A stretch of DNA of 64,000 nucleotides from contig NC_092345.1 in the NCBI RefSeq assembly GCF_963676685.1, forward strand, positions 22,258,001 through 22,322,000. The letters run 5' to 3'. The first letter of the stretch is position 1; every line of letters begins with the position of its first letter. Positions 21,304 through 52,444 of this stretch are shown here, piece by piece. This DNA is from Mytilus edulis. Lineage: Eukaryota. Position numbers and translations under genes: made by a program. The notes beneath the pieces were generated by a model. The model was given only the letters and a program-made list of their open reading frames with translations, did not search any database and had not been told where the DNA came from.

Positions 21304-22793
21304 TCTTCAATACTTCATAAGGGATATTATCAATTCCACACGATTTACCGTTTTTTGTTCTTGAGACAAGTCGCCTTATTTTATCTATAGTTATAGCTGA
21401 ATTCAACTCTTCATTTTCAATAAACAAAGGATCGAACATTCTTTCTTCTAATAAGACTTTATGACTAGAGGCGTATTTTTTAAAATTACCATCGAAATCG
21501 TCCGCTGAATTATCCATATTATATATATTTTGAAAATCAGTTTTCCATTTTTCTAAAACAACCTTTTCATCAGTATAGACTGTGAATTAACAAATTGTTT
21601 TTAATCAGCTTTTAAATTTTGATCAATCATGTATTCACTGAGTGTACGAGGACCCTTTATAAATTTTTATTTCTGACACCGTACAATTGTAACATTTAGG
21701 TTCTTGACGTAAATGATATTGCTTTAGTATTTATATAATTTGTCTGGTTGGGGGATAAATCGACAAATTTGGGAATACAATTAAGAGAAACGAAATGTTC
21801 AGTTTTAATATCTAGTGACCATATAAATATACACCTGAAGTATATGAACCCTTGGTGATTTGAAAGAAAAGTTTGCCATTAAAAAAACCCAAATACTTTC
21901 TAACAAATTGAATATTGATATAGTGTGTCTAAAGGAAGAAGATGTTGTTGATTATGTATGTTCAGCTTCTAACCCGTGTTACCTTTCAACTTTTACTCTT
22001 TATACAAAAGTCTCATTTGTTTACGATGTAATTAACAAAAACTTCCCCGACTTATATAACATTACTGACACTAACAAGTTTCAAACATAATGTTATAGAT
22101 TTAAGGCCGTTGAGATGTCATAGAGTTTGAGACCTCAAAGGGGGTATTACAAACATGAAGATATCTTCGATTTGATGGTCTCAAGTGTCTGGGCCAACAC
22201 TTTGGTCCAATTTGATAGAAAAGAGGGACGAAAGATACCAAAGGGACAGTCAAACTCATAAATCTAAAACAAACTGACAACGCCATGGCTAAAAATGAAA
22301 AAAAGACAAACAGAAAAACAATAGTACACATGACACAACATAGAAAACTAAAGAATAAACAACACGAACCCCAACAGTGTAGCAATATTCCAGTGGTAAT
22401 TGCATATATTTTTTTTTGTATGGAGAATGTATCTTTCAATATTATTACGATATTTTAGGGCTTGCGTTTCCTATGATAATTTCCTAGATAGAGAATTATC
22501 GCTTTCAAGGAATCTATTCAACCTCGAGGCTCTAATGGAAAAGTTGAAATCCCTCCGAAGGTTTTGTGGATAATCATGATTTGGATGGCTATAATGGGAT
22601 GTACATGTAATCCTGAAGAGGCTCCATAGCTTGTAGATACAACCTCGTTCTCTTTTCGGTTGTGATATCACAAGACCGATGTTAGTAACCGTCTGAACTC
22701 TATTTCTCTTATTTTTTTCTGTTCTTTTATCATGGCAAAATAATATATAGGGAAGTTGTCTCACTGCCTCAATAGAAGTTACGACGCCGCACT

Positions 22794-24747: not shown

Positions 24748-27700
24748 ATGTGTGAATCAGTGATGAATAGAACTGGATCACTGCTACATCGGCTTAAAAC
24801 AGAACCAGAATTCAGATTAAGATTTTTGACATTCCTGTGTTTGGTCTGGTCATTCTTCATTTTAGTGAGTATTAATTTAATCTTAGAAACATCAAATACA
24901 GTAACATGGGTAATAGAACACGTATTAGCCTTTAAAAAAAAAGGCTAGCCGTCTCTTAGCTGATGAAAATGGAAAGTGTTCTTGCTTTGTAGATTAATTC
25001 ATTTAGAATAGCCTTGCATATCGTTTAATGTTGTGTGCGTTTACAAAACTCCAAAAGATTCGGCTATTTATAGATAAAAGTTACCTGTGTTCCAATATCA
25101 TGAATATGCATGATAAATGACCAGGCACAATCTAATTGCTAAAATAGAGAGGACAAATCCGATATTCTACGGGATTGAAAGACATTTACTAGGTTTGGAT
25201 TTTCATAACCAATCAACAAACTTTGATTATTCACGTCTCATAATATCTTCCAATCAGGTAGTAAGAAGCATTCACGCACTGACTGTCCATCGTTCAATTC
25301 TTAATAACGTCTCCGAGGAGACGTTAACAAAAAAAAAACCGGCCAGTAATTCCCTATTCAAATACATGGTTTTCGTCAATAAAAGGTCTAATTACTGGCG
25401 TCATGATCAGGAATAATTCTGTTGGAAGTTCTGTTGGTTATACGAATCTACTTGGTGTGAACGTCAATATATCAGCAATCTTACAAAAATCAAATAGGAA
25501 TCAGTTTTAACTTCCTTTGTGTAAGTTGTACAACTCAGGAAGTATTGAAAGGCCGAGAAAAAAATGTTGGGAATACAAAATATATAAAACAACCAGAAAC
25601 AATTGTAATATCACCTTCGCCGCAAAATACACTAGCCATTTGAAAAGAAAACAATATACATATATATATACGAAATGCATATTCACCAAACATGCAGAGG
25701 AAACCGAGATCCAATATGATACAAGGAAATAACCAGGGTAAATATTGGAAAAGCACTTTTTGCTATATCTCATCAAGACAGTTTCTGATAGGGTTTTCAA
25801 TAATGAAAAAATGAATCGTTCCACCTTCAGCAAGATTAAACATGTTTAAAGAAGATAGTCAGATTTTATGGCCCCTAATGTCTATCTTATTCAAGTTTTC
25901 TTTGCAAAACCTGGACTAGTTGAAAAACGCGAACGTTTTAATTGTATTATATGTTCTAAAAGCTTTCATATGTTATTAAAATAAGCTAGACGTATTAATC
26001 AAATGCACACGTGTTATTGCAAATAAAAAGAAAAATTGAAATAATTGGATGTTATTGCACTCTTATAAAAAAAAAAACAGGTATGCACTCTTAATAAAAC
26101 CAAAGACAGATTGAAAAAATCACAACAGGACGTATGCAAAACGGTTGACTAGCTATTTCTGCTTTAATGAATCGTGAACGTCATATTGTCAATAGTCCCA
26201 CACTGTATCGCCAGGTTTTATTATATTTAAGTTAATGTACCCGACTACCTGTATATATGATAACTGTAAGAAGTTTTAAATTTAAACTGTCAGATAAGAA
26301 GTTTCAGGTAGTAGTTATGAATATCTAATGCATTTACAAATCCTGTTTTATTGCTATATGGTATAAACTTAATGCTGTTGAACATGATTTTGAGATAAGT
26401 CCCTGTAGTAACTCGGCAAACCTAGTTATGGTCTTCCTTCATTTGGGATTTTGAGGTAGCAGATAACAACTGGTCTAGATCTTTAATGAAATGTACAAAT
26501 TTTGAGAGTAGTATGTAATTCATGTGTAAGACTGTTCATGTAAATATAGATAAATTTGTGGAATTTTTTTACGACTATATTTTCAACAACAAAAAAATCA
26601 ACAATATTCTTGGTGGATTATTTTTTTTTTTAATTTTGCCACATAAAGGGAGATAACTCACATAGTAGGGGATATAACTCAGATACAGTAATTTTATAAA
26701 AGAAAGTGTTGTGAATTTACCTATTTTAATATGAACATGTAGCAAGAAAACAAGTTCGGTGGCCCCATTTTCATTTTCCTATCTGAAAGCATGTTATAAG
26801 AGCTTTTTTCTCTTGTGTTATCTTAACATTCTATGGTGAAGTTTTCTTTTTAGTCCCACACAATTGAATTTTCGATGCAAAATCTACACAGATCTGACAA
26901 TTTCGTAAAACCTGTAGCGTATAAAAAAGGACCCGGTGACCTATACTTTTTATTATATTTTTGAAATATTATAATAAAACTACATTTTGACAAACTGTAA
27001 TATAATCTCTATGTTTTTTTTATTAAGACGCCACAACCACCTTAAACTAAAGTGCATAGTGCCATAAATCAAGAAATTATGTTTAGAATGTGAAATACGT
27101 CATTGTATAAAATTAGAAATAATTTGTAAATTTTCTGTGTCTCTTTTGAACTAGTTGCACATAATTAGACATAAGCATAATCATATTCATTGATAATTTC
27201 TTAAGTAATGTATTTTGTTGTATTTAGGGATGGATTCTTGGACAATTTGGGCCATCAATTTTCGATTTACAGTACATTACTAATACAGATTTGGAGGGAG
27301 CATCATTTTACTACATATCACATAATGTAGGATATCTGATTGGTTCGTTGATCAGCGCGGTTCTGATTGGTAGATGTGATTGCAATTTTCTCTTATTTGT
27401 GACAATGTGTATCTATGGTATTTCTGTATTCGCAATACCGTGGTGTTACCTGCCACCAGCCATGTTAGTAGCGCAGGCAATTAGGGGCCTCTCAGGAGGT
27501 CTTCTAGATACAGGTAAGTCATCCAAAAGTATATATCTAGAAGAATTGTTACTAAGTGACTAATACCGATTGCGAACGACACTTGTTTTAATTAAGGTAA
27601 AATTATGTTTTTTGTTGTCTTGACAACCACACTCATACGGCATTTCAAACCTAAAAAGGCGTCAAGATGGGATATAGAGGTGAACTTTGCACGATGGAGA

Positions 27701-29958
27701 AACAACCGTATACTTTGAAATTAAAAGTCGTGCTCACGTCTATGTATTCACATAAAAGAGAGGTGAACGTTACCAAAAGGGATATTCAACCATTATATGT
27801 TGAAAACAAACGGTCAATGAAGTAGTCGAAAATCTATCAACAAACGATCAAAAGACAAATAACAGTATACAAAAAAAAAACCCGAAAGACTGAACACGGA
27901 CCCTACCAAAAACTGGTGTTGATCTCAGAGCGGTACTTAGACCCTGCTCCACATGTGACACCCGTCATGTTAATTCTATAAGATACGTTGATAATGTATA
28001 TCATGTAATAACTTTAAGACATCCTGCAATAACGGACCGGTAATTGATTCTTTTCTAATACGAAATAGCGATGTAAATATTTTCTTAACCTTGAGATTTT
28101 TTTTTTAATTGAATCACGTTTTTATGACAAAGGATACACGAGACTGTTACCAGTATAAACAACTCAAACATTGAAAAAGCACTAAGAACAAAAATAATTA
28201 AAGCAAGAGCAACATGAAACCCTATTAAAACAAAACTAAGGGGCGGTAGCAGGTGCTCCCGAGGGGAAAGATGATCCTGCTTGACAATGTGACATGAGGT
28301 ACCATCGTGTTGCTCGTAAAATCCCGGTGATCCGTGTATTTTTGGTAGGTCACATTCGAAAAGAAAATGACGCTATTGTAGATACAACAATTGGAATATA
28401 TCTGTCATCATCTTCGAACAGATATTTCATAACAGTCAACCAACTCGTGATGGCGTCCGGAGCGTCACTGATGAGTCTTATGTAGACGAAACGCGCGTCT
28501 TGCGTTCTAAATTATAATTCTGGTACCTTTGATAACTAATTAACCGCTTGGAACTCATGGTTTAATGAACTTACGGACATACATAAATTATGACATAACA
28601 TCATAGAGCATCTAACGACGTCCAAAAAAGTAGAAGACTAAACGAAAGTCTAATATATGTTTCTCTTACAACTGATATAATAAAAGTTCTTACATAATCT
28701 GTTCGCACGAACGTAAACTGACGTCGGTCTTCATCTATTGGATAAACCTATAATTTCTAACCGATATCGAGTATATTTCCAGTGAAAATTAAATATTGTC
28801 AAAAGGGTCATTATAAATAAATTGTGCTAAGAATTTAATGAATCGCTTTACTTTTCAGTTGCAAATTCGGAGCTCTTGAGTCTATTTGGAAATCAAGTCA
28901 GTCCTTATATGCAGGCCATGCATTTTGCATTTGCTACAGGAGGAATAATCAGTCCTTTGGTCACAGCACCATTTCTCACAGAACAGTATGATAATGGTGG
29001 CAATTCGTCGATAATAAACCAATCATCGTTAGTTATGCAAACTGGAAATATACAATTAGATAACATTTCATATCATTTGAATAATCTAACAACTGTGGAA
29101 AGAAATACCACGTACCATACGTCGAAGGATTCACATATATTCATTCCGTACACAATATCAGGTGTTCTCGCCATGTCTTCATCTGTATCGTTTTTACTTG
29201 TTTATATCAAATCCAGAAGACTAGCCAAACGACAAATCGATGAGGTAAAAATTGATCGAAATGAACGTCGATTATCTTTCCTTGTCAAACTGGTAATTTT
29301 GACAATAATGTCCATTATATTTCTACTATACACTGCGATGGAAGACACAATAGGTGCTTATGTTGCAACATTTTGTGTGGAACAGATGGCCATGACTAAG
29401 GAAGATGGATCTTATGTGACCGCCGTATTCTGGACTTTCTTTGCTTTTGGGAGATTAACAGGAATCCCAATTAGTAATATAGTTAAGTCAATACCCTTAG
29501 TTGGTATATATTCATCTTTACTTGTGATATCTTTTCTGTTGTTATCATTTTCACCTATGATAAATTCTTCTGTTACCGTATGGATTTCTACTGCTGTAAC
29601 TGGATTTGCTATGTCTATATTATTCCCGACTTTGTTCACGTGGGCAGAAGCAGACTTTTTATTGGTTACCGGTAAAATTGCGTCATTGTTCATTATGACA
29701 TCAACTTTAGGATCTATAACAAGTCCAGCGGCATTAGGATATTTGATTGAAGAAGTCAGTCCGATGTGGTATTCATATATACTTCTTGGAGAAAGTGTAG
29801 GAGTAATAATTTTCTTCGTGATAGCCATTATTCTTAAAAAGAAGCTTCCACAATTAGATGATAATAATGACAGGTTTAATATAGAAATCAAAATTGATGC
29901 AGATTCTAGTCCTGAACGGTCTGTACTTATGGATGTACCAGAAAATAAAGTCTCATAA
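24748..29958 (+). CDS. MFS transporter B, MFSD4/NaGLT1-like; exons 24748-24864, 27228-27513, 28859-29958; ~500 aa
   Basis: In-frame GT-AG junctions with the same phases (0, 1) and the same 286-nt exon 2 as A. Motifs GWILGQFGPSIFDL, GLLDT, PYMQAMHFAFATGGIISP, FWTFFAFGR. An in-frame stop upstream of ATG 24748 fixes the start. Confidence 0.9.
28460..28507 (+). ncRNA. Minimal type I hammerhead ribozyme (retrozyme/PLE-type)
   Basis: gagcgtca-CTGATGA-gtc ttatgta gac-GAAA-c gcgc GTC-ttgcgttc: full catalytic core, 3-bp stem II, palindromic loop III, stem I with one mismatch. Predicted cleavage after C28499. Confidence 0.85.
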
Positions 29959-32959: not shown

Positions 32960-35900
32960 TCACCTCCTAGATTTCCTGTTTTCTTCTGATTCAACACTCA
33001 TTTGAATTTCGTTTTCAAACGAATATGTATTTGCTTGTCTGGACACAAATGTAATAGTCCAAACTAAAACAAGCAAGACAATAGTTTGACCCAATGTTAT
33101 ATAAATGAACCATTTAGGAGACAGGTTATCCATTAAGTACCCTATCATTATCGGATTAATCATCGATCCAAGTGAAGCAGAAAACATTAGAAGAGAGGCT
33201 ACTTTTCCAGTTACAGGAACAAAGTCCTCTTCTGTCCAGAGAAGTATCGACGGAAAGAACACAGATATTGAAAATCCTACTACTGGTGAAAATATCCAAA
33301 TTCCAGTGGGGAATCCAAACTTTGTAGAAAGAAATATTCCAATTGTGCCTGCCAATACGATATTGATATAAACTCGTAACAATGTTGATGGCTTAAAATG
33401 TTTTGCAATGAAAATTGCAGTAAAGCGTCCAAATGCATACGCCGCCCAGTAAACAGAGACAAGATATGAGCCTGTTTGCTTCGTCCATTGAAACTGATTA
33501 ACAGTGAACGCTGTAAAAAAACCAAAGTACGTGTCTTCAAGTCCATTATCCACTCCTATAAATAAACTCATTAAAACGAGTATGAGTAATTTAAATGGTA
33601 GAGGTAGTTTTCTATGTCTATATTCCATTCCATCCGGGTTCTTGGTATCCATACGATATTCGGATCTGCTTTGCCAACATAAACATAAAAAGGGAATCGC
33701 TGCAGTTAGACACAAACCTGTTGATATCAGGTAAGCTTGGTAAAGAATTGACTCTTGTCCTCCAATTTCTGATTTGTTATCATTGTAAGCAGTTGAATCG
33801 TTAATAGTCGTATTGGTAAAATTTAGACCATTGCTGTTTGTTGTTAATATACCAGACATTCCAGCATTGGAAAACATTGCGTCATATGATTTAGTTGTCG
33901 ATTGCCACTGTGTTTCATTGTTTTCATTTGAGGGCGTTGGCAGAAGAAATGGCGATGTAGCAATTGGTGATAAAATTCCACCTACTGCATAAATGAAATG
34001 TAGCGTTTGCATGTACGACCGGGCAGATTCTTCTTCTCGGAACTTCAGAATAAAGACAGAATGTCCAGCTAAAAGTTAGCAGTGATATAAAAAAACAATA
34101 ATGTAGATATGGATCTGCTTACCCTTCCGGAGCACTGAGATCACCCCCAGTTTTTGGTGGGATTCGTGTTGCTTAGTCTTATGTTTTCTATGGTGTTTCT
34201 TGTGAACTGTTATTTGTCTGTTTGTCTTTTTCATTTTTAGCCATGGTGTAGTCATTTTGTTTTCAATTTATGAGTTTGACTGTTCCTCTAGTATCTTTCA
34301 CCCCTCTTTTGCAACACTTTCACGTAAGATTATTTTAACAGAACACTTCGTCTTTTTTTTGCAGCAGGTAAGTCAAAAGGACATAATTGTTGCCCTCGTT
34401 TTGAGAAATTCATATATTTGTTCTGATATCCAAAAGGGACACACTTTCGGAAATGTTAAAAGACATTTACATTTATTTTTTTCTACATATATTACATAAT
34501 GGCACACGCTACAATAAAGTTTTACTCTATGAAATGAAACTTTGAAGAACTTTTTTTCCAAATTGTCTAGAATATGAAAATAAGCTAAAATATATGATTT
34601 GCATATACACCACGAGTTTAAGATACTATTTAAATCGTTTAAACAAAAGTTCATGGGTAGATGCAAAATATATGAAATATAAGGCGAACAAATTTTCGGT
34701 TACTTAAATACGAAACAAATTAAGATCAACAACGAATTTTAATACCCTCGAAATATTTTTTTCTCAGTCAATCACTAAAAATCGATACAAGAAAAACATG
34801 AATCCATAGTAATCTTATAAAGATTTATATAACACTGCTTAAAGAGTTTGAAGTTGCACATTCGTGTTGATTATAAACGTTTACATGTATGCCTTAGGTG
34901 TGACATGGAATGTGGTAAAAAATATATCTACATAGCAATTGACTCTGTTAAAATTGTATCATGTTGATAATTATACAAACCTGCATCCAATAAGCCACCT
35001 CCTATTCCCTTAAAAATGTGCATTAATACCATTACTTCATATATTACAGAAAAAGGAATCGCAGCTGATGTAGACGCCAGCATGAAAAGGCCAATTAAAA
35101 TGATTCGATTTGCATTCATTCGTCCAAACAGTCCGCCACTGATCACTGAACCACATAAATAACCAATGAAAGTTGCTGTTACAAACCAAGAAGCTTCCTC
35201 TAACGTACTGTCTGTTAATTTCTCGAGATCCAACAAGGAAGGTCCAAGCTGGCTCATAACCCATCCCTAATCATACAAAATTAAAGTCAGTCAGGCAATA
35301 AAGACAATAACAATCAAAACCAAGGAGTAAACAAAGACTCACAAAATAAAATATCAAAGTTTCCATGTAAAAAAGAATCCAATGGCATTTGCTTCCAGAA
35401 CGGTTCAAAGTTAGTTTTAATGCCATTTGCTGCGTTTAATATACGGTATCAGAATCATTACGAATCACATTTATATCAGCTAGAATTGAAATATTAGTTA
35501 ATCCACGATTCAATAAACGTTCTCATTTTTAAAACTGTCAACTTGTAATTCCTCAGAAATTTAACAATGAAACATTTACATTTTACAGCGTTTTCGGTCC
35601 ATTATTTAACTTTTTTTTTTAACCTTGACTAAAAATTGATCCACGTAATGCATATAAAGATAAAAGGGTCAAAAGTACATTGATTCCTGTTTTTATTTCA
35701 CTCTTCACTGTAACAGATGTCATTGTCGACATTGACAATCCATGCAAACAGTTAATATAGTACTCCAGGACCTGCGTACAACCATCATCTTTTAGGGGTT
35801 GTGTTTTTTTTTTGGGAAAATGCTTCATGTTTAAAATATTCGCACTATAAACGCTTACAACCATATAAAACTATTACAAGAAGCATTCATTACATGTTTT

Positions 35901-38900
35901 ATGCTTCATGAATGCATTTATGAATTATATCAAGCTTTTTAATGTGTTTTCCATGCATTGTTTTAAAATTGTCGACATTTAACTTCTGCATTCCTAGCTG
36001 TTATATTTTATACAGAAATATAATTTAATATTCACTATTGACAAGCGCATGATGGTAACTGAAGTTACCACGATCCCAATATGTCGAAGGGGAATCCCGT
36101 TAAGATCTTTCACTCTTAATTTCTTTGTGTTTACAGATCTATACGGGGTCAGTAAATTCCATATAGGGTTCCAAGCTCTCATCCCATATGGAATTTACTG
36201 ACCCCGTATATATCGTATTAGGTCACTAACACACTATGTAACTAATAATACGCCTTTGGATCAAATGATATGTAAACATTGTATTGATAACAAAATTGAA
36301 GATGAGTTTCATGTTATATGTGAATGTAACCTCTATCAAGAGGATAGGAAAAAGTTTAGTGTAATGTTGACATTGTTAATATTATGCCATGTTTTCGTAA
36401 TTAATACAGTTTTGATAAATTTAGATATTTAATTAACTGTTCGGAGACTGATGTTTTCAACAGATTTCTTTTACATATAGAAAAATGTATTTTGATGTGG
36501 GAATAATTGCATAATATTGATGAGGATATTTTGTCTATTGTTTGTTAATAGTGTCACAATTGCTGTCTCTATGTTTAATTCTGTATTTATATTTGCATGT
36601 ACTAGTTAGTTAGTTACATTTTTATTTATTTATTCAAATGATTTGAATTTATTTTGAAAATATTAAATATAATTTGATGTATACTTTATTTTTTCTCCAG
36701 CTTGAAAACATGTGATAGATTTTTTTTAAATTTTATTTAATAATGATAAAGTTCTTGAAAGTGTCGCTAGAACCTGCTAAAACATTTTAATCAGAAGATT
36801 TTTTTTCATATATATAATTAATTATTGTGTGTTTTATTGATATTCATAAGCAAATGTATATTATATATAATATGTACAATATCAAATTGTATTTTAATAA
36901 TATTGTTTGTACAGTCTCTCATAATTTTTGTAAGATTGGTACATACAATGTGCATTTAAAGTTTGTTGTTATGTACGGAAGCCGTAAGGGGACACACAAA
37001 ACATAAGGGGACACACAAAACATAAGAAAATATATTTGTAATTCGAGATCACGATAAAACATTACCGTTTTACCGAGATCTCGATAAAAAATATATCGTT
37101 ATCTCGTTAAAACGAAATTGTTATATCGAGATCTCGGATTTTAAAAAGTTATCTCGGATTATTAAATCGTTATCTCGATTTATTATATCGTTATCTCGAT
37201 TTATTATATCGAGATCTCGGATTATTATATCGTGATCTCGGATTATTATATTGTTATCTCGGTTTAATATATCGTTATCTCGAGAAAATGAAACTGTTAT
37301 TATTTTTAAATTAATGTGGTGAGACTTTAATAAAATACTAAATCTAAATCTAGATAGATAATAACATGTCATTTCCCATATTGGTAGTGGTATCAGCCCA
37401 CGACCCATATCAAGCCCTCGGCCTAAGGCTCTCTGGTTTGATATGAGAGTCTAAGGCTGATACCAGGGTTAATATGGAAAATGACATGTCATAATCTAGT
37501 ATCTTGCCATATATAACGTTGTACACAAAGAAAACTTTAACCTTTTGCATTATAAACATGTAGATCCAATAGAGATATGCATATTAAAAGAAACAAAACC
37601 AAAAAAGTGAGAATTTTTTCAAGTTTCTCCGGGTGCGCGATTCTTTCGCTGTGTTGAAGACCCATTGGTTGCATCCGGCTGTTTACTGCTCTATGGTCGG
37701 GTTGTTGTCTCTTTGACACATTCCCTATTTTAATTCTAAATTTTATTTTATTCTGGAACTATTTTTTTTTAAAACACAGCCGAAGGGAGAGGAATATAAA
37801 TGCAAAACAAAAACAAAAAAGACTCAAAACATTTTAATATTGGTGTTAAATGATTTATGAATACTGTAATATAGTAAAATCACTTTGAACAGTTAATTTT
37901 TTTTTTTAAGTCTCAAATATGTCATCATTTGGATATTTGACATTAATTGTCATCTAGGAAATAAACTCATCATAGATACCAGAATTAAATTTTGTATTTC
38001 CGCCAGACGCGCGTTTTGTCTACAAAAGACTCATCAGTGACGCTCGAATCCAAAAAAGTTTAAAAGACCAAATAAAGTACGAAGTTGAAAAGCAGTGAGG
38101 ACCAAAATTACTAAAAGTTTTGCCAAATACAGCTGAGATAATCTATTCCTGAGGTAGAACAGCCTTAGTATATCAAAAATTCAAATTCAAGCAGTTAATT
38201 TTATTAATATGACCATAGCAATGATAACGCATGTAAGCACAGAAGTGCTCACTACTGGGCTGGTAATACCCTCGGGGAATTAAAACTCCACCAGCAGTGG
38301 CATCGACCCAGTGGTTGTAAATAAACTTATCATAGAAACCAGGATTAAATTTTGTATTCCCGCCGGACGCACACGAATTGAATATTACTTCGTCGTTTTA
38401 TAAATTTTAAGTGTAAAGCAGATCATTATGAGTAACTTTAATTTGAAAATTCAATTAAAAAAAAGTTGATAATGATTTCTTTCGCATCAGTTTCCGCAAG
38501 GTAGACAGAAACATAAAAAAAAAGACCTTGTCCATATAACATAGAATTTATATTTACCAATACAATAAATGCCCAGCATAGGAATATCCATATTAAAAAA
38601 CGTTGTTTGAAATCTTTGTCTGTTGATAACCTCTCCATCAAAGAATCCGGAATAGTCTTTGCTATGTTACCTTCCATCATTCCAGTTGTTTCACTTTCGT
38701 CAGTTACCCTCTGTTTATTTGAGGTATAATAGTTGTGGTTCTTATGATCTAAAATCCACGTTATGGATCACGCCATGATTGGCTTATTTATTTTTCATTT
38801 TGTTATCTATCATACAATTGGTTCTCAATGCTATTCGGATTTATTCTACTCTTTTTCGTACAATAAATCTCGTATGATAGATAACAAAATTTAAAAATAA

Positions 38901-38991
38901 ATAAGCCAATCAGAGCGTGGTCCATAACGTGTTTTTTGGATCATATGAACCATTACTATTATACCTCTTTATTTTGTATCTGCTCATCCAT
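32960..38991 (-). CDS. MFS transporter C, MFSD4/NaGLT1-like; exons 38710-38558, 35266-34981, 34068-32960; start at ATG 38680 (~505 aa) or at ATG 38991 via mini-exon 38991-38965 (~524 aa)
   Basis: In-frame GT-AG junctions and a 286-nt exon 2. Motifs GWVMSQLGPSLLDL, GLLDAAGH, YMQTLHFIYAVGGILSP, YWAAYAFGR. Closest paralogue is A. Confidence 0.9.
36268..36360 (+). mobile_element. LINE ORF2 C-terminal relic
   Basis: Translates ICKHCIDNKIEDEFHVICECNLY, the same motif class as the C-terminus of the LINE at ~18800. Confidence 0.55.
37040..37290. repeat. 21-bp tandem repeats (gttatctcgatttattatatc) within a probable TIR element relic
   Basis: Direct 21-bp periodicity; explains the spurious RDNDII ORF at 37121-37408. 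Confidence 0.75.
37959..38370 (-). mobile_element. Non-LTR retrozyme monomer (360-bp unit with terminal direct repeat) carrying a hammerhead at ~38001-38046
   Basis: 37959-38010 is repeated at 38319-38370. The minus strand reads gagcgtcaCTGATGAgtcttttgtagacAAAAcgcgcGTCtggcg (GAAA mutated to AAAA). Confidence 0.8.
38721..38967. mobile_element. MITE with ~95-bp TIRs (gaggtataatagt...) and 7-bp flanking duplication tttattt, inserted in coding exon 1 of transporter C
   Basis: The TIRs and the duplication (38714-38720 and 38968-38974) are directly visible. Removing the element restores a continuous ORF from ATG 38991. Confidence 0.9.
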
Positions 38992-41900
38992 ATCATCACA
39001 TGTGTTCCTTGTGACTTCAGAATTTCCCGTCGGTTATCACGTTTTCGTTTTATTACGTTAAAAATGATAAAACATTATCCTGAAGATATATATTAGATTA
39101 TTAAATTATTTAACATAACTTTAATATTACTAAATTTAGGTACCCTCATGTTAGATCATAGTCTGGAACTTTAATGAGGTAGATATATAAAAAAAAAAAA
39201 GAAAAAAAAAAAAAGTACCACGAAATCTTAGATTATGCCATTTTTGCCCTATTAAAGATATAACGTCACGGTATCCAAATTGCACCGGTTACCCAAATTG
39301 TAGCGGAAATCTTATATGTTTTCTTAGAGACAAAACAATTTGTATTTTTGTTTTTATTATTTGACATTATGCACATCTTTCAACATAAGTAAATATATTC
39401 AAATATGCACAAAACATTATTAGTATACATCAACAGATGATGTATCACTGCAAAAGGTAAAATGTACGGAAACTTTTAAAAATGAACAAATAAAACATGT
39501 TACAAGCCTCCATTTATTCAGAAATGAATAGTGAGCATGGATTAGTAATGATAAATTGTTCTAAATATTTGAAAAAAACTAAAAACAAATTTTAAAGGAT
39601 GTGAATTTAAGTTTGGCAGAAATTTGGGAAATCTGCATTCCAGAATCATGGATAGTTTGGAGGTCTGTTGAGACTAATTTTTTAATAATTCAGTATGGAT
39701 TCAAAATTAAATTGGTGAAACCATACAGTGAGTAATTATAGTTCTACAAAATAAACATAGAAAGGGAACTTTTGTTTGGATCATGAATAATAGTAGGTGA
39801 AAGAACTGTCAAAATAGGTGAAATTTTGGTACCCTCATGTTAGATAATGAATGTCATTTCTTCTTTCATTGCAAAATAAATAAAAATTTGAGAAATAACT
39901 ACTTCTCTAAAATTGCTTCTCAAAATATTGACTTTATGAGTTGCACTAACAATAAAAAAGAAATACAATATATACTCAATCCATCAAATTTAAACAGGTA
40001 TAAAGTTTAGTTTCCTGTTTAAAACAGTCAATGGAACTCAGGACAGGGGACTCTTGCTTTGCCAATGTTTTGTGGTATATTAATATGATATAATTTGTAT
40101 TTTGATTTGTCACTATATACCAAACTTGCTACAATTGATATATAGAGAATAATACATGGCAAAATCCGTATCATATGTCGTATCATCCCGAGACATCAAT
40201 ATCAGCCCAAGGGCCTTGAGGCCCGAGGGATGATATTGGTCGAGGGTGATACGGCATGTGATACGGATTTTGTCATGTATTATACACTTTATCATATATT
40301 TCAACAGAAGAGTATTATATTATATGAACTGTTTTCTGATCCATAGCACTGGGTTACCTTCAGTTCTACTTTTGTCTTGTTTCAAAGGCCTTAAAAGAAC
40401 TGCTCAATTACTTATCCGAAGCACCTGGGTTACCTTACAATTTGCGTGCTGTTGTTTTAAAAATATTTTGTTTATTATTGTATTAATTTGTGTGTTTTGT
40501 AGTTTTCATAGTTGCATTTAGTGTGCCAAAAAATATGAAAACTTGACGTTCGTGACGTCACATACAATATGAAAACTCGACGTTCGTGAACGTCACATAA
40601 CGATGACGTCATTCAAAAAATTTACCTATTTTGAGGAAAATTTTTCTTCAAGCCAAAAAAAAAAACCAAAACTGACTTTATGTAAAAAAATTAAAAAAAA
40701 AAAAAAAGTAGGGGTGTGATAAAGGGTATGCGATAGAGGGTAGGGGTGTGATAAAGGGTATGCGATAAAGGGTGCGCATCAAAGTTACGCGATATGGATT
40801 TAACAACAGGCTATTTATCACATATGCAAAACTACTGTATTTACTACTAAACATATGATAAATACATATATACTATATCTGGGACTATTATACTTAAGTT
40901 TTTGTTTTTCAGTTTGTCACAAACATGTTTAATTTTTTTACATGACAATAAAGATTATTATTATTATTCAAATGTTTGATGCTCTCTGCTTTTAGTGTGA
41001 CAGTATTTAGATACAAAGTCATGCCATTGTGTGCTTTACTCTTTCCGATTTTTGCTTGAATGATTGACATTTCTGTGTACTTTTTTTAGCTTCTTAGGAC
41101 AGGCACTTGTCTCAGAATTTGTTTCCTATATCCCTTAATATAATAGTAAGGTATATAAGGGGGGGGGGATCTGAGACAAGTGCCTGTGCTACTTAACATG
41201 ATTTAAGTTCTTTATAAATGTACTTTGAATATCAAATGTCCTTTACGTTGTTTATTTGTGCTTTGTATGATTTGTGTGTCTTGCATACTTTATTCGTGCG
41301 AAATTGCATTAAATGTAGTCATTAGAATCCGTAATTTGATTGGCTGACAGCAACCGCGGAGCTCACCAATATTCTGTATTTGTACGGGTACGTCGAAGTT
41401 ACCGATACTGTCTTTTATTTCCGTTTAAAATAAAAATAACTATGACTGCACGTGCTATCCGGGACAATATTAAAACAATAGATATAAAACCTAACGAAAA
41501 GCTTCATATTTAACTCTTAATTGTATTTTTGTAGCTTGAAAAAGTAATTATAACTTGAAGAATTGAAGGCTTCTTATTATAACTTTACAGGGATGTAAAA
41601 GCGTTGATCGTGTGCAATAGTGTTCATTTTGTTTTTAACTCTAATGTATAGTTCATTTTTAGTAATAGACTTTTGGCGTGGTTCGGTATTTTCATTTTGC
41701 CATTTGATTAGGGACTTTCCGTTTGGAATTTTCCTCGGAGTTCAGTATTTTTGTGATACTACTTTTTCGTAACATAAGAAGTGGTTCTTTACTTATACTT
41801 CTCTTCATTGTAAATCTTTGTTTACATATTTGTTTGATTTTATATGGATAAAGATAATAACACACTTTTGAAGACTGTACCCCTATTTGTGACATTTTTA

Positions 41901-42860
41901 CCTATTATTTCTGTTTATTTTTTTCACACATCGTTGTCAATATAATGAAATTTTATGCGACTGACATGCAAGGGAGAGGTTTAGCTAGCTATAAAATCAA
42001 TTTTAATTCACCATTTTATAACTAAAAAATGTCTGTACCAAGTCAGGAATATGACAGTTGTTATCTATTTGTTTGATGTGTGAGTTTTTGATTTTGCCAT
42101 TTGGATTGGGGAATTTTCGTTTTGAATTTTTTCTCGGAGTTCAGTATTTTTGTGATTTTACTCTTTATACATCCCCCTATTGTGTTATTGTGATATGGTT
42201 TATTTATTATGTTGACTTTCATTTTTCTTATGTACATTTTGACCTTTTACGTCGTATTGTTTTAGTCACTAGTTTTGTCGATATTATAGAATGCAAGTTG
42301 CTATTGTCATAAAAGTGAGAGGAATATTGAGAGGAATATACCTATATCTACCTATAAAACCAGGTGTAAAAGTAGGATACCAAACCTTCACAAAACTCCG
42401 TATAAAGAACGATACATAGCTGGATCATCCAGATGTTCGACTTAACATATTTCTAATGTGCAGACTACTATATTTTCTACATAAAAAGATGACATCTAAA
42501 AATATTGTGATGAGATATATTCAACCAGTGCTGTTTATCAAGTGTGGATACTCAAAAATTCTAAACATCTACTGCTAAATCTTATATCACAATCTCTGCA
42601 ATTTTGCAGTAACATTAAGACCTTTGATTTTTCGTAGCTTTACACTTCTATTCCCCATGCTCAATTGAAATATCGACTTTACCATCTAATTAAACAGAGC
42701 TTTTTCTGTAAAAAAGGGAATCGTAGATATATATTTCTTGTTTTTGGGTTATTATAATTCTTATTTTGTGAAAAACCACACTGGTTCTATTTGAAAATAC
42801 ACTGAAGATGATATTATCAAAATGCTGGACTTTTTTTTATCGGCAATAAATATGTTCGTT

Positions 42861-43149
42861 TTGCTGACATGAATTATCATTGATATAGTCATATTAATAA
42901 ATTAAGTGTTAACAAAACTTTTGAAAATTTGAAATACTAAGCTAGGCTTCTCTACCTCAGGAATAGATGACCTTAGCTGTATTTGGCAAAACTTTTAGGA
43001 ATTTTGGTCCTCAATGCTCTTCAACTTTGTACTTTATTTGGCCTTTTAAACTTGTTTGGATTCTAGCATCACTAATTAGTCTTTTGTATACGAAACGCGC
43101 GTCTGGCGTATGTACAAAATTAAATCCTGGTATCTATGATGAGTTTATT
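42861..43149 (+). mobile_element. Second, truncated copy of the retrozyme with a degenerate hammerhead (~43066-43108)
   Basis: Reverse complement of 37960-38240. The core reads CTAATTA instead of CTGATGA; GAAAcgcgcGTC is intact. Confidence 0.8.
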
Positions 43150-46061
43150 CTATGTATGATGACGTTTGGTTTTGTTGCACTAAAGTGTTTCTGTTGTTCC
43201 GTTGTTTACCTCTTATAGTTGATATGTTTCCCTCGGGTTTTTTTATTTGTTAACCGGATCTGTTTTCTCTAAATCGACGTTTGAACAGCAGCATACTACT
43301 GTTGTCTTTATTAATCCACTATATTTCAAAAGAAAATGCCTGAAGCTCCAAGTCAGGAATATGACAGTTTGATTTTCATTCGTTTGGTATATTTGAGCTT
43401 TAGATTTTGACATATGATAAAAGAAGATTCCGTTTTTTTTCCCTTTGAGTTTGGTATTTTCGTTATTTTACTTTTTACATGAATTTTAGTATTTTGAGAA
43501 AAAAAATTGTAATGGTTTTCATCGATTATAAGGGGCAACCATTTAACTCCAAGTGAGGAACAACTGGGGGTCATGGTTTTTTTTTCGGAATCAGAATATT
43601 CTTTTTACTAGTTTTTCGACGCTATCAACCAAATTTTTTTCTTCAAAATTTAACACTATAAAAAAACCAGCGAAAATCTAGCTTAGAGACGAAATAATTT
43701 GTATTTCTATAATTGGCAATTAAGCACGTCTTTCGACATAACTTAATATATTTCATTGGGCACAAAACAGTCGATTTTACACCAACAGATGAATTATCTG
43801 TCAAAGTTAAATCTACGGAAACGTCGCATACATTTAAAAGCTAAAAACTTCTAAAGATACATCAACAGAACAAAACCTGTCTAAATGTATATATGATTAA
43901 ATTTGCCAGTTGAAATTACAAGCCAAGTTGAAGTGCAATTACATATTCTCCTCGAACATGTTTGCTTCCAACCGCCACCACAATTACCAATTCGAGAAAG
44001 GCAAACTTCGAAGAGAATACTCAGAGCTGCTCAAATTAATGAAATGTGATAACCATTAATATAACGCCATTATAAATCAAAATCAGAAAATTGATATCCG
44101 TTGAAATTGATATCATCTAAACGGTTACATTTAATTACTTACTCATAAACGTGTTCCATGATCAAAAGTTTGTATATATATGTTAATTAAAATAAGTCAG
44201 TTCTCATTGTTGGTAGAGTTATATGTGTGCAGATAACAAGGTTCAAAGTATAAAACCTGTTTATCCTTGTATGTTTACACTGGTTACCATGTAGTGTGAA
44301 ATGATGTATCAACGTTAATTTTGAGCTGTTGGTTGTATACTTTAAAATCACCTAAATAACTTGATTGTCTATACAGGAATCTGGGTGGACAGTTTCTATT
44401 TATATTATTCTGTTTAACACAATTTAACATATAAGATATATCTATCAAAATGTATCGCCGTTCATCAAAGGCCATTCCACTTGTGGTGACAAAATAGTAT
44501 GAACAAGTTGTTTCATGTTATATTAAGATATCTTTATAGTATAAAATGTATCTTTATGACAGCAATATCACATAATAGTTTAGTTAAATGACAAAGCAGT
44601 ATGAAAATGTAGCTCTATGTTATATCAAGATGTCTTCATAGTATGAAATATTATCTTCATAACAAAGTGAAATGACAGAATAGTATGAAAAGGTAGCTAG
44701 CTCCATGTTGTATCAAAGTGTCTTTATAGTATATAAATATATCTTAGCGATATAGCAATATGACAGAGTATCATAGTCAAATGTCGTTATAGTATAGAAC
44801 ATTTGCTTCATGATATATCTTTACCCATAATGATAAGGTTATTGTAATATAAGGCAGATGTGGCGTTCCATATAATTGATCTATGAACATTTTATATTAT
44901 TTGGCATTTGCTCTCGCCATGGAAGTAATACTTCGATGCTGTCGCTATTAAAATTGCGTCTTCAACTATAATAGTTCATGTTGCATATGCCAATTAAAGT
45001 AAATATAATTCTTAAAGACGCAAACATCCAACATTCAACATACTGAATAGTGTTATGTGTCAGGTCAGGAATTATACCACAGCAAGTCGCAACTTCCTAT
45101 TTATTCATATGACTTTTAGAAGTCATAGATTTAGAAGCGGTTAATTTTTTGTGTGACAATATTATATTGAGTGTCAACATTACGATAAAGTAGTCTCATT
45201 CTAATTTAAATACACTACTGGAAAAAGATAAAATCACAAAAATACTAAACTCCGAGGAAAATTCAAAACGAAAAGTCCTTAATCCGGCAAATTGCAAAAT
45301 CAAACGCTCAAACACAGCAACGAATGGCAAACAAGAACTTGAAACGACATAGAGAAATCACGAGACAAAGAAACTGTCCCAAATCTAATAAGAAAAACCA
45401 ACAAATTAAAAACAAAACCAACAAATTAAAAACAAAACCACCAACTAAAGCAGTATGCATAAAGAAAGACGACCTCTTTAAGATTTAAGACTCCGTGTGG
45501 TTGTCGATTATAGTTATAAACAACCAGTTACAGTACATTAAATTATATAAATATGAAGATGTGATACGACTCCAATGAGACATATCCTTACCAGAGACCA
45601 AATGAAGTATAAAAACTAACAACTATAGGTAAACCTACGGCTTCAAAGATTAGCAAAACCCAAAACCAATATCGCATAGTTAACTACAAGAGATCTCGAA
45701 ATGACAATTGTAAAATAATCAAAACAAAAAAGAACTAACGACTTGATACGTGTACAAAAAATAAACGAAATAAATGTGTATTTTAGGTAATGCAAAGATC
45801 TGAAGCTTCTACATGTCAATTGTCAATGCTCTTTTTGGCATCATCCATGTACATAATCTCAAAATATCGTTTAAGTTCAGATCAAACCATCTTTACATTT
45901 TTTATTAATTGAATGTCTAAGACACCATACCTTCATTATGTAAAGTAGTGTTTGAACTTTAACAGACTATAGTTATTTGTATCTATTATAGACATTTGTA
46001 CGTTGTATTAAATGTACAGTTGTTTCTAATGACAAAAGTGCAGTCTATAGGGAAATTGTAT

Positions 46062-48440
46062 TTACACAGTACTTCCTAAGTCCGGGTTCAAAGTATCATA
46101 GACTTCGTACAGTGAAATGTAGCCGTTCCCATGACCAACTGCCATTTTAGGAAAAGAACCAGGCGAAAAGTCAATAAATCTCGGAGTTTTTTCCAGTAAC
46201 GAATGCTGCCTTACTTCATCGACTACTACTGAAGATGAGTCAACAAAGTATATGTGATTCTTTCTTGTGTCTGCTACAACAAATAAGTTTTTATATAATC
46301 CTATCCCTTGTGGATCCCCTAAATTTCTACTAATCGAACCGTCAAAAACACCTTCATGAGCTCCTTCCATGGTCATGAAAATTACACGCGACGTTTTGTA
46401 ATCAGAAATACCTATTATTCCGTCCTTGCTTACTCTAATAGATCTTGGGTAACCTAGTCGAACAGCGTCCGACCCATTAAATGTCCGTAGAAAGTTTCCT
46501 TGGTGATCGAGAATATCTACTGCGGGCAAAGAAAACGGGTTAGTTGTACCACAAACAAACTGATTGGTATTCTCATTAAACGTTAAACAAGTGTAGCCTT
46601 TCTGTGTTACTATAGTACTTATGACATTGATTTGGTAATTATTCATTGGGTCGATTGCGTATGTAATAAGGTATCTCTGTTTAGGAAAAGTCACTGCCAT
46701 ATATACACACGGCTGTCGTGGCAGTCTATATACTGTACACCCATGTGGATCGACGGGTAATTCATAGGCATTTAAACAAGATCTAAATCCCCTCGTATTA
46801 AAAACTTTGGCTGTTTTATTTCTTTTATCTATTGCAAGCAATGCCCTTTCATCTATCCAGCATAAATCTGTTAAAGTAGGATTCTTTCGGTCTCTTCCCC
46901 TTAATTCTGCATTAAATTTAGTAAGAGGATTTAATCTTAACCTGTTGTCATCATTTGGCGTTCCTGGTGGCGTTATTGATCCTGAGGATACACCATGCGT
47001 TAAACCTCTGGGTACTAATGGCGTTGTAAAAAAGTCATCCACGTTAGGAGCAGATGGTAGAGATTGAGCCGAAGAATTATTACTTCCGGAATTATTGGAG
47101 TTTGGTTGTGGAAAGGTAAAGTGTTCACGTGACACCGGTGAATTACTAGTATTTCCTATAGAATTGTTAAAGTTTGGTGGTGGAAAACGATATGGATTCT
47201 GAGTTACTGGTGAAGTATTTTGTCTATTTGAATATGTCGTGCTACTACTTGAGGTTAATTCTTGGTATGATGGAGGTGGTTCGTCTTCCGGTTGATAATC
47301 ACTGTCTGTATCAGGAGGTGAAACGCTTATCACTATTCCTGGTGATTGTTCATTCCTATTAGCAACATTAGCCGCTGTTGGTGTAACATCAGATGATCCA
47401 GTATTTTCATTGATTACGGAATGATTATCGATTCTGGTGTGGTTGCTTTGTGAATCATTGCTTTCATTGGATATCACCGCACCAGGCGATCTTGTACTAG
47501 AATTGATAAGCTCAATATTTATAAGATCACCCTCGGTCAACATATCTTCGAATTCTGTGTTTATAACAAAACGAATTTCATTTTCATCCTGAACATACTG
47601 TTTGATTGTTGTAGCTTTAGCGGTAAAATCTTCCAAGGTTGATAGCAAAGCATCAAAGTTCAAGTAACTTGCAAAAGAATTCAATATATCGCTATCATTA
47701 AAGATTCTGTTCACAGATGGAAAACATGGACCGAGGCTTTCCAACAACGAAAAACTTAGTTTTGTGTATTGTGTGATTGTTGCCATTTCAGTATCAGTGA
47801 ATAATTGAAGTTTGTCTAAGACATCTTTTTCATGTTTTGTTAAATAATCTAATAGCTGCATTTTTAAATCTGCAAAATACTTCATGATGCCCAATACAGT
47901 TTCGTCTTTCTTGGACAAATTCTGACGTTCACGAGATTTCAAAGATTCACAAATTTCAGTCAATTCTCGATTAGTAGTTGACAACGATTCTTTAACTCTT
48001 GTCTGTTGCCTATTCCGAACTTCTTTCATTGCCTCTTCGGTAATCAATTGACACAACGGTTTGTTTACTTTGCAGACTTCACATGCAAGATCAAAACTAT
48101 CTGCATAAAAATACTCGCACAAATAATTCGGATGTTCCTTACAGGCTACCATCCCAGATTCTTGAAAAGTGGGAATTCTTTTATCAGTAAACACAGAAGC
48201 TGTTCCTAAAGATTCTAAACCCGAATTATTAATAGAAGAACCAGACGACATAATTTTGCATTTACACGTCGGACAAGACACGTCCCCTTGGTTTGAGTTC
48301 CGGTCGATTAGTCCCTTCAAACATTCAAAACACAAACTGTGCATACATTCGAGAGTCCGCGGATCAAAACACTCTCGTTTACAAATACCACATGTTCGTA
48401 GTGACGATATAATGTCAGAAATAGGATCAGCTGATGCCAT
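46062..48440 (-). CDS. TRIM-like E3 ubiquitin ligase: C3HC4 RING, degenerate B-box, coiled coil, S/N/P-rich linker, NHL-like beta-propeller; single coding exon, 792 aa
   Basis: RING CGIC...CMHSLCFEC...CPTC; B-box-like CKEH...CEVC; propeller repeats YPRSIRVSKDGIIGISD and DPQGIGLYKNLFVVAD. Probable 5'UTR acceptor ttccag at 48474-48475. Confidence 0.88.
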   Translation of the reverse strand: MASADPISDIISSLRTCGICKRECFDPRTLECMHSLCFECLKGLIDRNSNQGDVSCPTCKCKIMSSGSSINNSGLESLGTASVFTDKRIPTFQESGMVACKEHPNYLCEYFYADSFDLACEVCKVNKPLCQLITEEAMKEVRNRQQTRVKESLSTTNRELTEICESLKSRERQNLSKKDETVLGIMKYFADLKMQLLDYLTKHEKDVLDKLQLFTDTEMATITQYTKLSFSLLESLGPCFPSVNRIFNDSDILNSFASYLNFDALLSTLEDFTAKATTIKQYVQDENEIRFVINTEFEDMLTEGDLINIELINSSTRSPGAVISNESNDSQSNHTRIDNHSVINENTGSSDVTPTAANVANRNEQSPGIVISVSPPDTDSDYQPEDEPPPSYQELTSSSSTTYSNRQNTSPVTQNPYRFPPPNFNNSIGNTSNSPVSREHFTFPQPNSNNSGSNNSSAQSLPSAPNVDDFFTTPLVPRGLTHGVSSGSITPPGTPNDDNRLRLNPLTKFNAELRGRDRKNPTLTDLCWIDERALLAIDKRNKTAKVFNTRGFRSCLNAYELPVDPHGCTVYRLPRQPCVYMAVTFPKQRYLITYAIDPMNNYQINVISTIVTQKGYTCLTFNENTNQFVCGTTNPFSLPAVDILDHQGNFLRTFNGSDAVRLGYPRSIRVSKDGIIGISDYKTSRVIFMTMEGAHEGVFDGSISRNLGDPQGIGLYKNLFVVADTRKNHIYFVDSSSVVVDEVRQHSLLEKTPRFIDFSPGSFPKMAVGHGNGYISLYEVYDTLNPDLGSTV

Positions 48441-49677
48441 GATAATCGTCTTTGTGCTTTAATACGTCTTATCCTGGAAGAAATACCAAAGTTCAATCTT
48501 TATGTTATTATACTAAATGTTGTTTCCAAAACAAAAAAAAGAATTTAACTGAGACACAACTATTCAAACAAATAATTTTTTTTAAAAGCTTAGTGTGATT
48601 AAAAATCAAACTAATTTGGAAACAGATGAGACCTTTAAATTTCTTAAACTAAGTGTATTAGGTAAAACATAGTTGACCCAAAGTAATTATGGTCTATATG
48701 TTTTCCGTGAAAAGAACTAAAACCTAAACGTTATGTAACACTGTTATGATGCTGTTATCCATGGCGATTCATTACCCTCTATACACGTACTTCTATAAAG
48801 ATTTACGACCATAATTATAATACTGTAAGACGCTAGAAATCGTCCAGAGTCTAAAAAGTTGCGAATTATTCGTTACACAGGATATAATATCTGCCACGAA
48901 CTTTTGACAGTTATGAAATTTTATCTAATTATAATTATGCAAAGGACTTGAACGTTTTCATGTTGGCGCCAAATGATGCCAAAAGGATCTAAAAGTAACA
49001 CCAAGTTGAACATTATATGTGTATGGAATGTCCGAAACAAAGAAAGTAATTTAATAGTATCCATACCCAACTAGATCAGTCCCATTCATATGTCGATAGA
49101 TATTATCAGGCGTACAACATTAAACACATTTGAAATTTATTTATCTAGGGCATGCTATGCCTGAAATTTTTTACAGATGCGCAGGTTTGTCTGTACTCAG
49201 AGTAAATTTTGAGGTGAAAATACGGCCATTTTAGCCAAAGGCTCCACATGAACCTTAACTGCATTTTCAATTAATAGTTTTACCGTATATAATATATAGC
49301 AGTTACATGACATCCTAGTGTTTATACATTTATTTTTATTTGAATTCAATACTAAAACGCTAACAAATATTATAAACACAATACAGAAAGTATAACATAC
49401 CTGTTGTTTATGTGTCAATCAGTAAACAATAATATACACAATTTATAAAGGCTACTAGGTCAAGTCAGGTAAAATTGTGGTTGCCTCCCTTATAATATGT
49501 ATACTTATAGGTTACCTGTGTAATTTAAAGCAAGCTTCACTGCATTAAAGGTTTAAAGTAACATATACATTGCTTTAATATTTTAAAAATAAGTTGATGT
49601 TAATTTTATTTCTTACTTGTATATGATTTTCCAATGGAGTTATACATCTTCAATCATACAATAAAGCGGTTTTATAC

Positions 49678-51446: not shown

Positions 51447-52444
51447 AACTCTATATAACACTGCAACTCTATACAACATTGCAATTCTATACCACGCTGT
51501 AATGTATATACAGCACTGCAATGTCTATACAACACTACACTACAATTATATATAACACTCTATACAACATTGTAGTTCTATCTCTATACAACACTTTGCC
51601 AAATAAAGTGTTGCACCACCAAAATAGACTTGTTAGTAAATTGAAATTGCAAATGGAAAGATAGGCAAAATATTGAAATTGCGCTTCATGCGACGAAAAC
51701 ATAACAGTAACACTAAGATCCAGTGAATTAGTACTAAATCCTTTGTCACAAATATAAACATATTAATTTAGTTTTATTGCTAATTGTATACTTTTGATTT
51801 CCACTATCATATGAGACAGTATATATAGCTCTGCTATTCCTTAAAACAATGCAATTGTGAATGTCTTAAATGGAAGTGACAAGCTACGACTAGCGGATAA
51901 AACTGTATATATCTCAGTATAGAATTACAGTGTTGTATATAGTTGCAAAGGTGTTTAATATAGAGCTACAAACTTGTACAGAATTATACAAGCTGTATAG
52001 AATTGTTGCATTGTTGTGTAGGATTTCAGAGTTGTATCAAATCGCTATGTCGAATAGAATTAAAACTACGATTAGCAGAGGAACGTAGGGATGAGGAGTT
52101 GATAAAACGTGATAAAACTGCATATCTCTGTGGCGACATTTGATATATAGAAGAACTGCCCCAACTGGTGTTAACATGCCCATTGTTAAATTGTAAAATG
52201 TATACTGCTCTTTTGCTGTATGATTTTTAAAAATTAAAACTTTGCCTTGACCATTTATATAACTTTTCGTCTGTTTTTCCCGTTAAGCTGCAGTAAAGTA
52301 CGTTTTATGGATATGTACCCTGTCCGAATACTGATAACTTTGTTAAACATACGAATCACTACTATTTATAGATAATAAACCGTTGAACATTTGGTGAACT
52401 TGAAATGTAAACATTGACATAAATTATCTTTACAAGGGTGAAAA

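Follow-up and report, generated by a model that had tools for sequence, protein, structure and literature searches.

The first coding exon of an NAGLT1-like MFS gene of Mytilus edulis, on the minus strand of the 64,000-nt stretch of contig NC_092345.1 analysed here (the window), is interrupted by a 247-nt palindromic element (38967-38721). It is probable that this element is a single transposon-derived intron, likely young and inefficiently spliced, that is removed from some transcripts and retained in others. The origin of introns and their path to efficient splicing in animals is a standing question, and surveys detect only families of at least four copies. This locus keeps the full footprint of the event readable, with the duplication, the terminal-repeat donor and the co-opted acceptor in the DNA and both isoforms in RNA.

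The first 13 nt of the element, GAGGTATAATAGT, recur at its end as an exact reverse complement, and a 7-nt direct repeat, AAATAAA, lies on both sides of it (38974-38968 and 38720-38714). The palindromic element with a 7-bp duplication in a coding exon, described in the initial annotation, is borne out by the sequence. The reading frame begins at 38991 with an ATG (minus strand), and the element comes after its eighth codon. Without splicing the frame meets a stop after 10 codons; removal of 38964-38711 (254 nt, GT..AG) gives the in-frame MDEQIQNKERVTDESETTGMMEG, which is open up to the next donor at 38557. The segment 38995-38690 folds as one hairpin of -131.3 kcal/mol (z = -19.4), and none of 100 shuffled sequences is equally stable. 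Upstream of the acceptor CAG 9/18 positions are pyrimidines, against 11/18 at the acceptor of the same exon, a weak tract that had already been pointed out. An alternative in-frame acceptor is present in the sequence at 38741, and no joint in the runs examined uses it.

It is suggested, from the 7-bp duplication, that the element inserted after codon 8 and that AAATAAA was duplicated at this step. The terminal repeat (GAG|GT) supplies a donor three bases inside the element and the host CAG, three bases past the duplication, the acceptor, such that three bases gained replace three lost and splicing restores the length, with one Q-to-E change, at any element length and in either orientation. With the donor placed 3 nt into the terminus and 7 bp duplicated, the frame is set only by the position of the first AG. 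Insertions simulated with these two values at 5,987 sites in five coding exons of the window, splice-site strength being ignored, were in frame and stop-free at 916 (15.3%) and kept the exact length at 175 (2.9%). Such an in-frame fit is uncommon, yet it is what survival of an exonic insertion would select for.

Table 1. Features of the element-bearing locus, numbered from the first letter of the window, and the large relatives of the element.
Feature	Position or size	Strand	Basis or remark
Palindromic non-autonomous DNA transposon, two head-to-head foldback-type TIR termini	38721..38967	.	Long single hairpin; arms align with large-element termini
Target-site duplication, upstream copy AAATAAA, exonic	38968..38974	-	Sequence
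Target-site duplication, downstream copy, within the new intron	38714..38720	-	Sequence
GAG, first three element bases, staying in the spliced mRNA; Glu at codon 9	38965..38967	-	Sequence, X2 joint, RefSeq model
254-nt GT..AG intron; terminal-repeat donor, host CAG (38713-38711) acceptor	38711..38964	-	X2 contig 24, joint 38710/38965, shared letters = 2
12 listed A-to-G changes in one contig with the element kept; likely hyper-editing by ADAR in the 3' arm	38742..38789	-	X2 contig 23
Alternative non-coding first exon, 3' end; donor GT at 44142	44143..44168	-	Joined to exon 2 in run X1
Second alternative first exon, 3' end; donor GT at 42385	42386..42411	-	Spliced X2 contig joins it to exon 2a
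Exon 2a: 5' UTR and codons 1-9, ATG at 38991	38965..39079	-	Contigs end at 39079-39081 and go on into upstream exons
Exon 2b: codons 10-60, in-frame ATGs 38680/38677, first transmembrane segment	38558..38710	-	Single copy in the assembly
Exon 3, NAGLT1-like MFS gene	34981..35266	-	Sequence and contigs
Exon 4, NAGLT1-like MFS gene	32962..34068	-	Four-exon chain = P0022, 524/524 residues
Large element 1	78,378 bp, contig C1		7-bp duplication perfect
Large element 2	about 17.1 kb, contig C1		7-bp duplication perfect
Large element 3	31,362 bp, contig C1		Duplication matches at 5/7 bases

An MFS_1 transporter is encoded by the downstream exons, and among named proteins it is closest to the NAGLT1-like proteins of Mytilus. 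When spliced, the four-exon chain of the window is identical at 524 of 524 residues, Glu at codon 9 included, to the M. edulis RefSeq protein XP_071154883.1, which begins with MDEQIQNKERVT, the same spliced N-terminus. The public model already treats the element as an intron, perhaps on the basis of similar cDNA reads or of prediction. It also has a short additional 3' exon, which was not located. Three other annotations place the start further downstream: at exon 3 in P0001 and P0023, and at the second Met in P0021. The initial annotation had stated that paralogues A and B lack an intron in coding exon 1, and both exons are indeed single open frames (for A, residues 1-110 of P0009 match 12435-12764 at 100%; for B, about 24748-24864). 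However, the N-terminal tails of both paralogues align with the element-bearing protein only from residue 32 onward, and they therefore say little on the insertion site.

Eight runs were examined: the contig sets X1, X2, X4, X6 and X14, guessed to be RNA (5/14 of that kind), the raw-read RNA run X24 (1/4), and X18 and X19, of unknown kind (2/6), with miRNA runs and the DNA runs X15-X17 left out. X18 and X19 bear a second species label (organism B), behave as DNA and both carry the element, while X24 (19 in 100 of the run read) gave five reads, none of them on exons, and hence no information. A joint across the element is found in one of the five covering RNA-type runs: contig 24 of X2 joins 38710 to 38965 at depth 3, skipping 254 nt with GT..AG on the sense strand, with 28 letters on the short side of the joint, below the 31 asked for bridging. 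Given that this contig also runs into the exon ending at 42386, 3.3 kb upstream, it is RNA-derived, and since the element-bearing exon is single-copy in the assembly, no intronless paralogue explains the joint.

Splicing and an empty allele would both remove 254 nt and would differ in one base, GAG against CAG, and this one-base test separates splicing from both an empty allele and reverse-transcriptase slippage. Two letters are shared at the X2 joint, as splicing predicts, where an empty site would give seven. Contig 22 of the same run ends at 38712, the spliced and the retained contig both start at 38683, and with an overlap of 30 letters the graph branches at 38713. From the shared-letter count and the position of this branch, the junction base is the G of GAG and not the C of CAG; one of the three other differing letters of contig 24 in exon 2a is without a listed position. 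GT..AG ends joined in an RNA-type contig are those of a U2 spliceosomal intron, and on this one contig, which the RefSeq model matches, a spliceosomal cut of the element probably occurs. The splice of 38964-38711 (254 nt) forecast in the initial annotation, neutral in length with a single Q-to-E change, recurs in the X2 joint and at the N-terminus of XP_071154883.1, with GAG (Glu) at codon 9 in both. Its derivation of the donor from the terminal repeat and of the acceptor from the host CAG agrees with the sequence and with the same joint. The RNA check of the junction that it recommended had a divided outcome, with the joint in one of the five covering RNA-type runs and retention in all five.

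A joint of this kind could also have been produced by reverse transcriptase slipping across the hairpin, a real artefact with hairpins that carry direct repeats, for which the available text on CD19 provides a precedent with 8-nt repeats (PMC8240250). The present hairpin, at -131 kcal/mol, is flanked by a near-perfect 10-nt repeat, the pyrimidine tract is weak and the joint was seen at depth 3 in a single run of five. Nevertheless, slippage is improbable here for two reasons: first, reasoning from the fold, a slip at the base of the stem should re-anneal on the single-stranded 7-nt duplication and leave CAG, whereas the contig has GAG, and to produce GAG the enzyme would have to jump into the stem with 2 nt of homology. 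Second, a CAG-type joint is listed in none of the eight runs, and the cut falls on GT..AG. The jump at a flanking direct repeat by which a falsitron is recognised is not what the contig records, as GAG is kept and two letters are shared.

Contigs that retain the element are present in all five covering RNA-type runs. In X1, a contig spliced to exon 3 continues from 38557 to 38726 without a difference and passes the acceptor by 16 nt; a second contig, spliced to the first exon ending at 44143, reaches 38958, 7 nt past the donor. X6 and X14 have contigs joined to exon 3 that run into the element as far as 38741 and 38738, respectively; the X4 contig also runs into it but shows no downstream splicing, and could be pre-mRNA or DNA. 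X2 holds both forms, the spliced at depth 3 and the retained at depth 2, although contigs yield no ratio of spliced to retained message. An unbroken contig through the acceptor would mean that the spliced branch was absent from that assembly or had been removed from it as rare. Transcripts that retain the element had been named in the initial annotation as the result that would speak against a spliced intron, and this is seen in part: retention occurs in 5/5 runs, but the joint is present in 1/5.

These contigs, which give no proportion, show many transcripts already spliced at a flanking intron that still hold the element, and the retained forms may be nuclear intermediates. Poor splicing could result from the position of the donor, the branch region and the weak pyrimidine tract in or against a very stable stem. 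In the retained message 11 ATGs, six of them within the element, precede the next in-frame start at 38680, and given these upstream ATGs and the hairpin it would be translated poorly. The stop after 10 codons and the six extra upstream ATGs would leave little full-length protein, and any protein from this message would begin at the ATG at 38680/38677, about 19 residues short at its N-terminus. It is suggested that the insertion survived since partial splicing, a dispensable N-terminal tail and the neighbouring paralogues would make its cost low.

Contig 23 of X2 (38683-38820, depth 2), which retains the element and is anchored in unique exon sequence, has 14 differences from the window, and all 12 of those listed are T>C on the plus strand, A-to-G in the sense of the gene, out of 26 adenosines in range. 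These changes all lie in the 3' arm of the stem, and two are opposite a C. Eight of the 12 sites are without T>C in either DNA-type run (X18 and X19, of the second species label); the change at 38745 gives the letter usual in other genomic copies, and a further three are found in some DNA contigs of other copies. The neighbours of the changed sites are 5 U, 4 A, 2 C and 1 G against 8, 8, 6 and 4 available, a sample too small to count. It is likely, from one contig of depth 2 compared with DNA of other animals, that the retained hairpin is hyper-edited by ADAR, and such editing of retained hairpins is taken as the last step of the proposed pathway. ADAR enzymes are present and active in molluscs according to the accessible part of PMC6651903, and links between editing and splicing are reported in mouse in the portions available of PMC6724681 and PMC7462079.

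This raises the possibility that the locus is an intron caught at birth whose splicing is gated by editing: the hairpin would hide the splice signals, ADAR would melt or mark the stem, and the balance would set transporter output across two mussel species. This wider reading is quite doubtful; were it true, any member of the foldback family described below, up to 78 kb, with the same donor could act likewise. The retained, edited form might also be a regulated state, with the stem opened or closed by ADAR editing or by temperature and the output of full-length transporter set accordingly. X2 contains both isoforms together with the likely edited hairpin, contigs of the spliced form are missing from the four other runs and the insertion is common to two species labels. 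Contigs give no ratios, however, and selection cannot be read from an insertion that close or hybridising mussels share; regulation of this kind is unlikely. Partial splicing of a single transposon-derived intron remains the preferred reading, and with a likely ADAR target on the same molecule, early leaky intron gain and the interplay of editing with splicing are testable in a farmed animal.

The two 13-nt ends occur 241-256 nt apart once in the 1.37-Gb assembly, a search for short copies that gives a lower bound for diverged ones. An arm is carried by 122 of the 133 loci examined, and two inward-facing arms are found at this site only; terminus-pattern matches were inspected at 30 loci of 486 in one scan and at 29/29 in another, with termini after C or G incompletely listed. 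Arm matches number in the thousands, and most are a one-armed module within a different, high-copy repeat, which presumably has a Helitron-like start. True termini bound three large elements of 17-78 kb on a single contig. Tandem repeats of 33 bp and 61-64 bp make up their mirrored arms, and the long inverted tandem-repeat arms and target-site duplication of a foldback-type element are found in them, the 7-bp duplication being perfect in two of the three. The 247-bp element corresponds to two such termini, each represented by its outer 120-130 nt, in head-to-head fusion, and is most simply an internal deletion derivative of a foldback-type element.

A cognate transposase bounded by these termini was not found among the large relatives. 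The hAT-type ORFs (PF05699 and PF14291, below cut-off) occur in one of the three, the 31-kb copy, in a segment that the other copies lack; a hAT-type transposase as parent was set aside, as that segment is absent elsewhere and likely nested. A genome search for the P-type transposase PF12017 gave no match, but its controls also gave none. The 247-bp element is short and non-coding, with TIRs and a TSD, as a MITE would be, and the MITE label of the initial annotation proved overstated: a uniform short element at high copy number is not seen, the short form being found once in the assembly. A high-copy MITE reading is rejected. The relatives found with the same ends are large and non-coding.

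The intron gain had been called introner-like, and this holds for the mechanism, which works like that of an introner, but not for a family. In the sources as available, an introner family requires at least four sequence-similar introns in unrelated genes (PMC12130899; bioRxiv 10.1101/2022.06.06.494994), and here one short copy is found. The scan for further copies at intron boundaries that the initial annotation had proposed recovered no second short copy and no second intron-forming copy in the assembly, and the flanks of the three large copies contain no evident coding frame in an ORF listing. That the element is nevertheless a true introner, one member of a family spreading as ready-made, efficiently spliced introns, is very unlikely. 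The terminal GAG|GT would give a donor in both orientations, the arithmetic of length is net-zero, about 15% of exonic sites would be in frame and RefSeq models the spliced form as the protein of the gene; one contig and one RefSeq model describe an exonic transposon removable by splicing. Against this stand the single short copy in 1.37 Gb, large relatives without evident coding flanks, retention in all five runs and, in the accessible text of a 2025 survey, no introner family in any of five Mytilus assemblies (PMC12130899).

The insertion is present in both species labels and in all covering runs. Sharing of this kind among close or hybridising mussels does not show selection. The empty-site allele or orthologue reading NKQRVT anticipated in the initial annotation was not recovered: no empty site occurs at the locus in the eight runs, and neither protein searches (residues 1-62) nor metagenome contigs gave such an orthologue. 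The pre-insertion state is therefore reconstructed from the duplication only. Database proteins of M. californianus, M. coruscus and M. trossulus are without a usable first exon. P0030 has a homologous first exon and aligns unbroken over residues 4-60 at 37% identity, and it may give weak support, at the level of sequence, to an uninterrupted ancestral exon starting upstream of the insertion site. P0028, P0029 and P0031 were dropped as first-exon homologues, being repeats or unaligned matches (only P0031 was read). It is scarcely credible that the joined form is a second DNA allele without the element, whether an excision footprint or an empty site in which C became G. Exon 2a does vary among the mussel samples, with 3-5 differences from the window in X1, X2 and X18, and the X2 joint is read against DNA of other animals only; yet such an allele needs one specific base change recreating the exact GT..AG cut, the two DNA-type runs of organism B carry the element and give no joint, and no empty allele occurs in the other runs.

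Among known systems, the large relatives are like the foldback element Galileo (P superfamily; PMC4168063, as far as its available text goes) in their kb-long tandem-repeat arms, nested insertions, 7-bp TSDs and, in most, the lack of a transposase, while for the mussel elements a cognate transposase was not found. Repbase also has hAT families with 7-bp TSDs (PMC4455052), and the parts available of PMC12905397 and PMC4455052 do not settle the superfamily of the element. Like MITEs, the mussel element is short, non-coding and AT-rich, with TIRs, a TSD and a hairpin; unlike them, it has no uniform high-copy form. With the falsitrons and exitrons of PMC8240250, as described in its accessible text, it shares an exonic hairpin with flanking direct repeats that is skipped in cDNA. 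In contrast to falsitrons, its joint lies at GT..AG, off the 7-nt repeat, with GAG kept, and the retained form has stops and is not a coding exitron.

TIR-derived introners, such as Micromonas IE1 and the Chrysochromulina type, bring the 5' site and co-opt the 3' site, according to the text available of bioRxiv 10.1101/2022.06.06.494994, PMC11282704 and PMC12130899. As in these, a non-autonomous TIR element with a TSD lies in an exon, the element end gives the donor, the host gives the acceptor and the frame is restored. Unlike these, the mussel element is single copy, its acceptor lies 3 nt beyond the TSD and not in it, its splicing is leaky and the whole element is one hairpin, likely edited. 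The literature searched, outside which lay the bioRxiv supplements and files 13-14 of PMC12130899, contained no description of this locus, nor of any bivalve intron of transposon origin that is leaky and edited. Singular transposon-derived introns are reported in many eukaryotes (PMC11282704, in the part available), and the locus shows no new class of element, single introns of this origin being already known. In summary, the mussel element, as one insertion turned intron, belongs to that class and differs from its reported members in that both isoforms and a likely edited retained form are seen at one locus, in a mollusc.

The large foldback-type elements on contig C1 are relatives of the 247-bp fragment and have the same termini. 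Between the arms of the 78-kb element there are approximately 17 near-identical tandem units of 3.1 kb each, and many of these agree at every position (100%) across 1.65 kb. The same interval includes a gap of 100 N. The units could represent a macrosatellite borne by the transposon or, in part, an assembly effect. The 31-kb copy holds nested internal inverted repeats and a frameshifted hAT/ZNF862-like transposase (L038:4036-6194), which is apparently itself nested. In the 17-kb copy the left arm is broken by a 169-bp tandem array, and the left end is repeated on an unplaced contig (C1856:2730-3842, L076) that is perhaps a haplotig.

The 110-nt terminal module, a one-armed match to the fragment's arm, is contained in a very high-copy repeat of 290-360-bp tandem units (L007-L029, L077-L106). 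Given that the module ends at the same base throughout, in at least two subfamilies of this repeat, it is suggested that a transposon terminus was captured by another repeat.

Features of the window and foldback-type elements of the searched assembly (G000)
Feature	Location	Strand	Remarks
Non-LTR retroelement ORF	8837-9172	+	reverse-transcriptase-like, broken; judged by eye
Non-LTR retroelement ORF	18644-21586	minus	as above
NAGLT1-like MFS paralogues (three, clustered)	12435-16043, 24748-29958, 32962-44168
RING ... NHL (TRIM-NHL-like) protein	46062-48458	minus	single ORF, 798 codons
Anhydro-N-acetylmuramic acid kinase (AnmK)	52442-54557	+	two exons; PF03702, E 3e-36
17-kb foldback-type copy	G000:C1:52816879-52834017 (L068, L073-L074)		perfect 7-bp duplication
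31-kb foldback-type copy	G000:C1:36579099-36610460 (L038-L041)
78-kb foldback-type element	G000:C1:124748570-124826947 (L030-L037)		perfect 7-bp duplication

The later intron positions are common to all three NAGLT1-like paralogues, the third of which has two alternative non-coding first exons, ending at 44143 and 42386. The N-terminus of P0027, an M. coruscus database protein, derives from a homologue of intronic window positions 35377-35575 (minus strand), where a stop and frame shifts interrupt the homologous stretch; it is likely either that this N-terminus is mis-annotated or that the window holds a decayed exon. The RING ... NHL frame has no intron. AnmK is an enzyme found mostly in bacteria, and its presence in a mussel genome raises the possibility of an old horizontal transfer or of peptidoglycan recycling.
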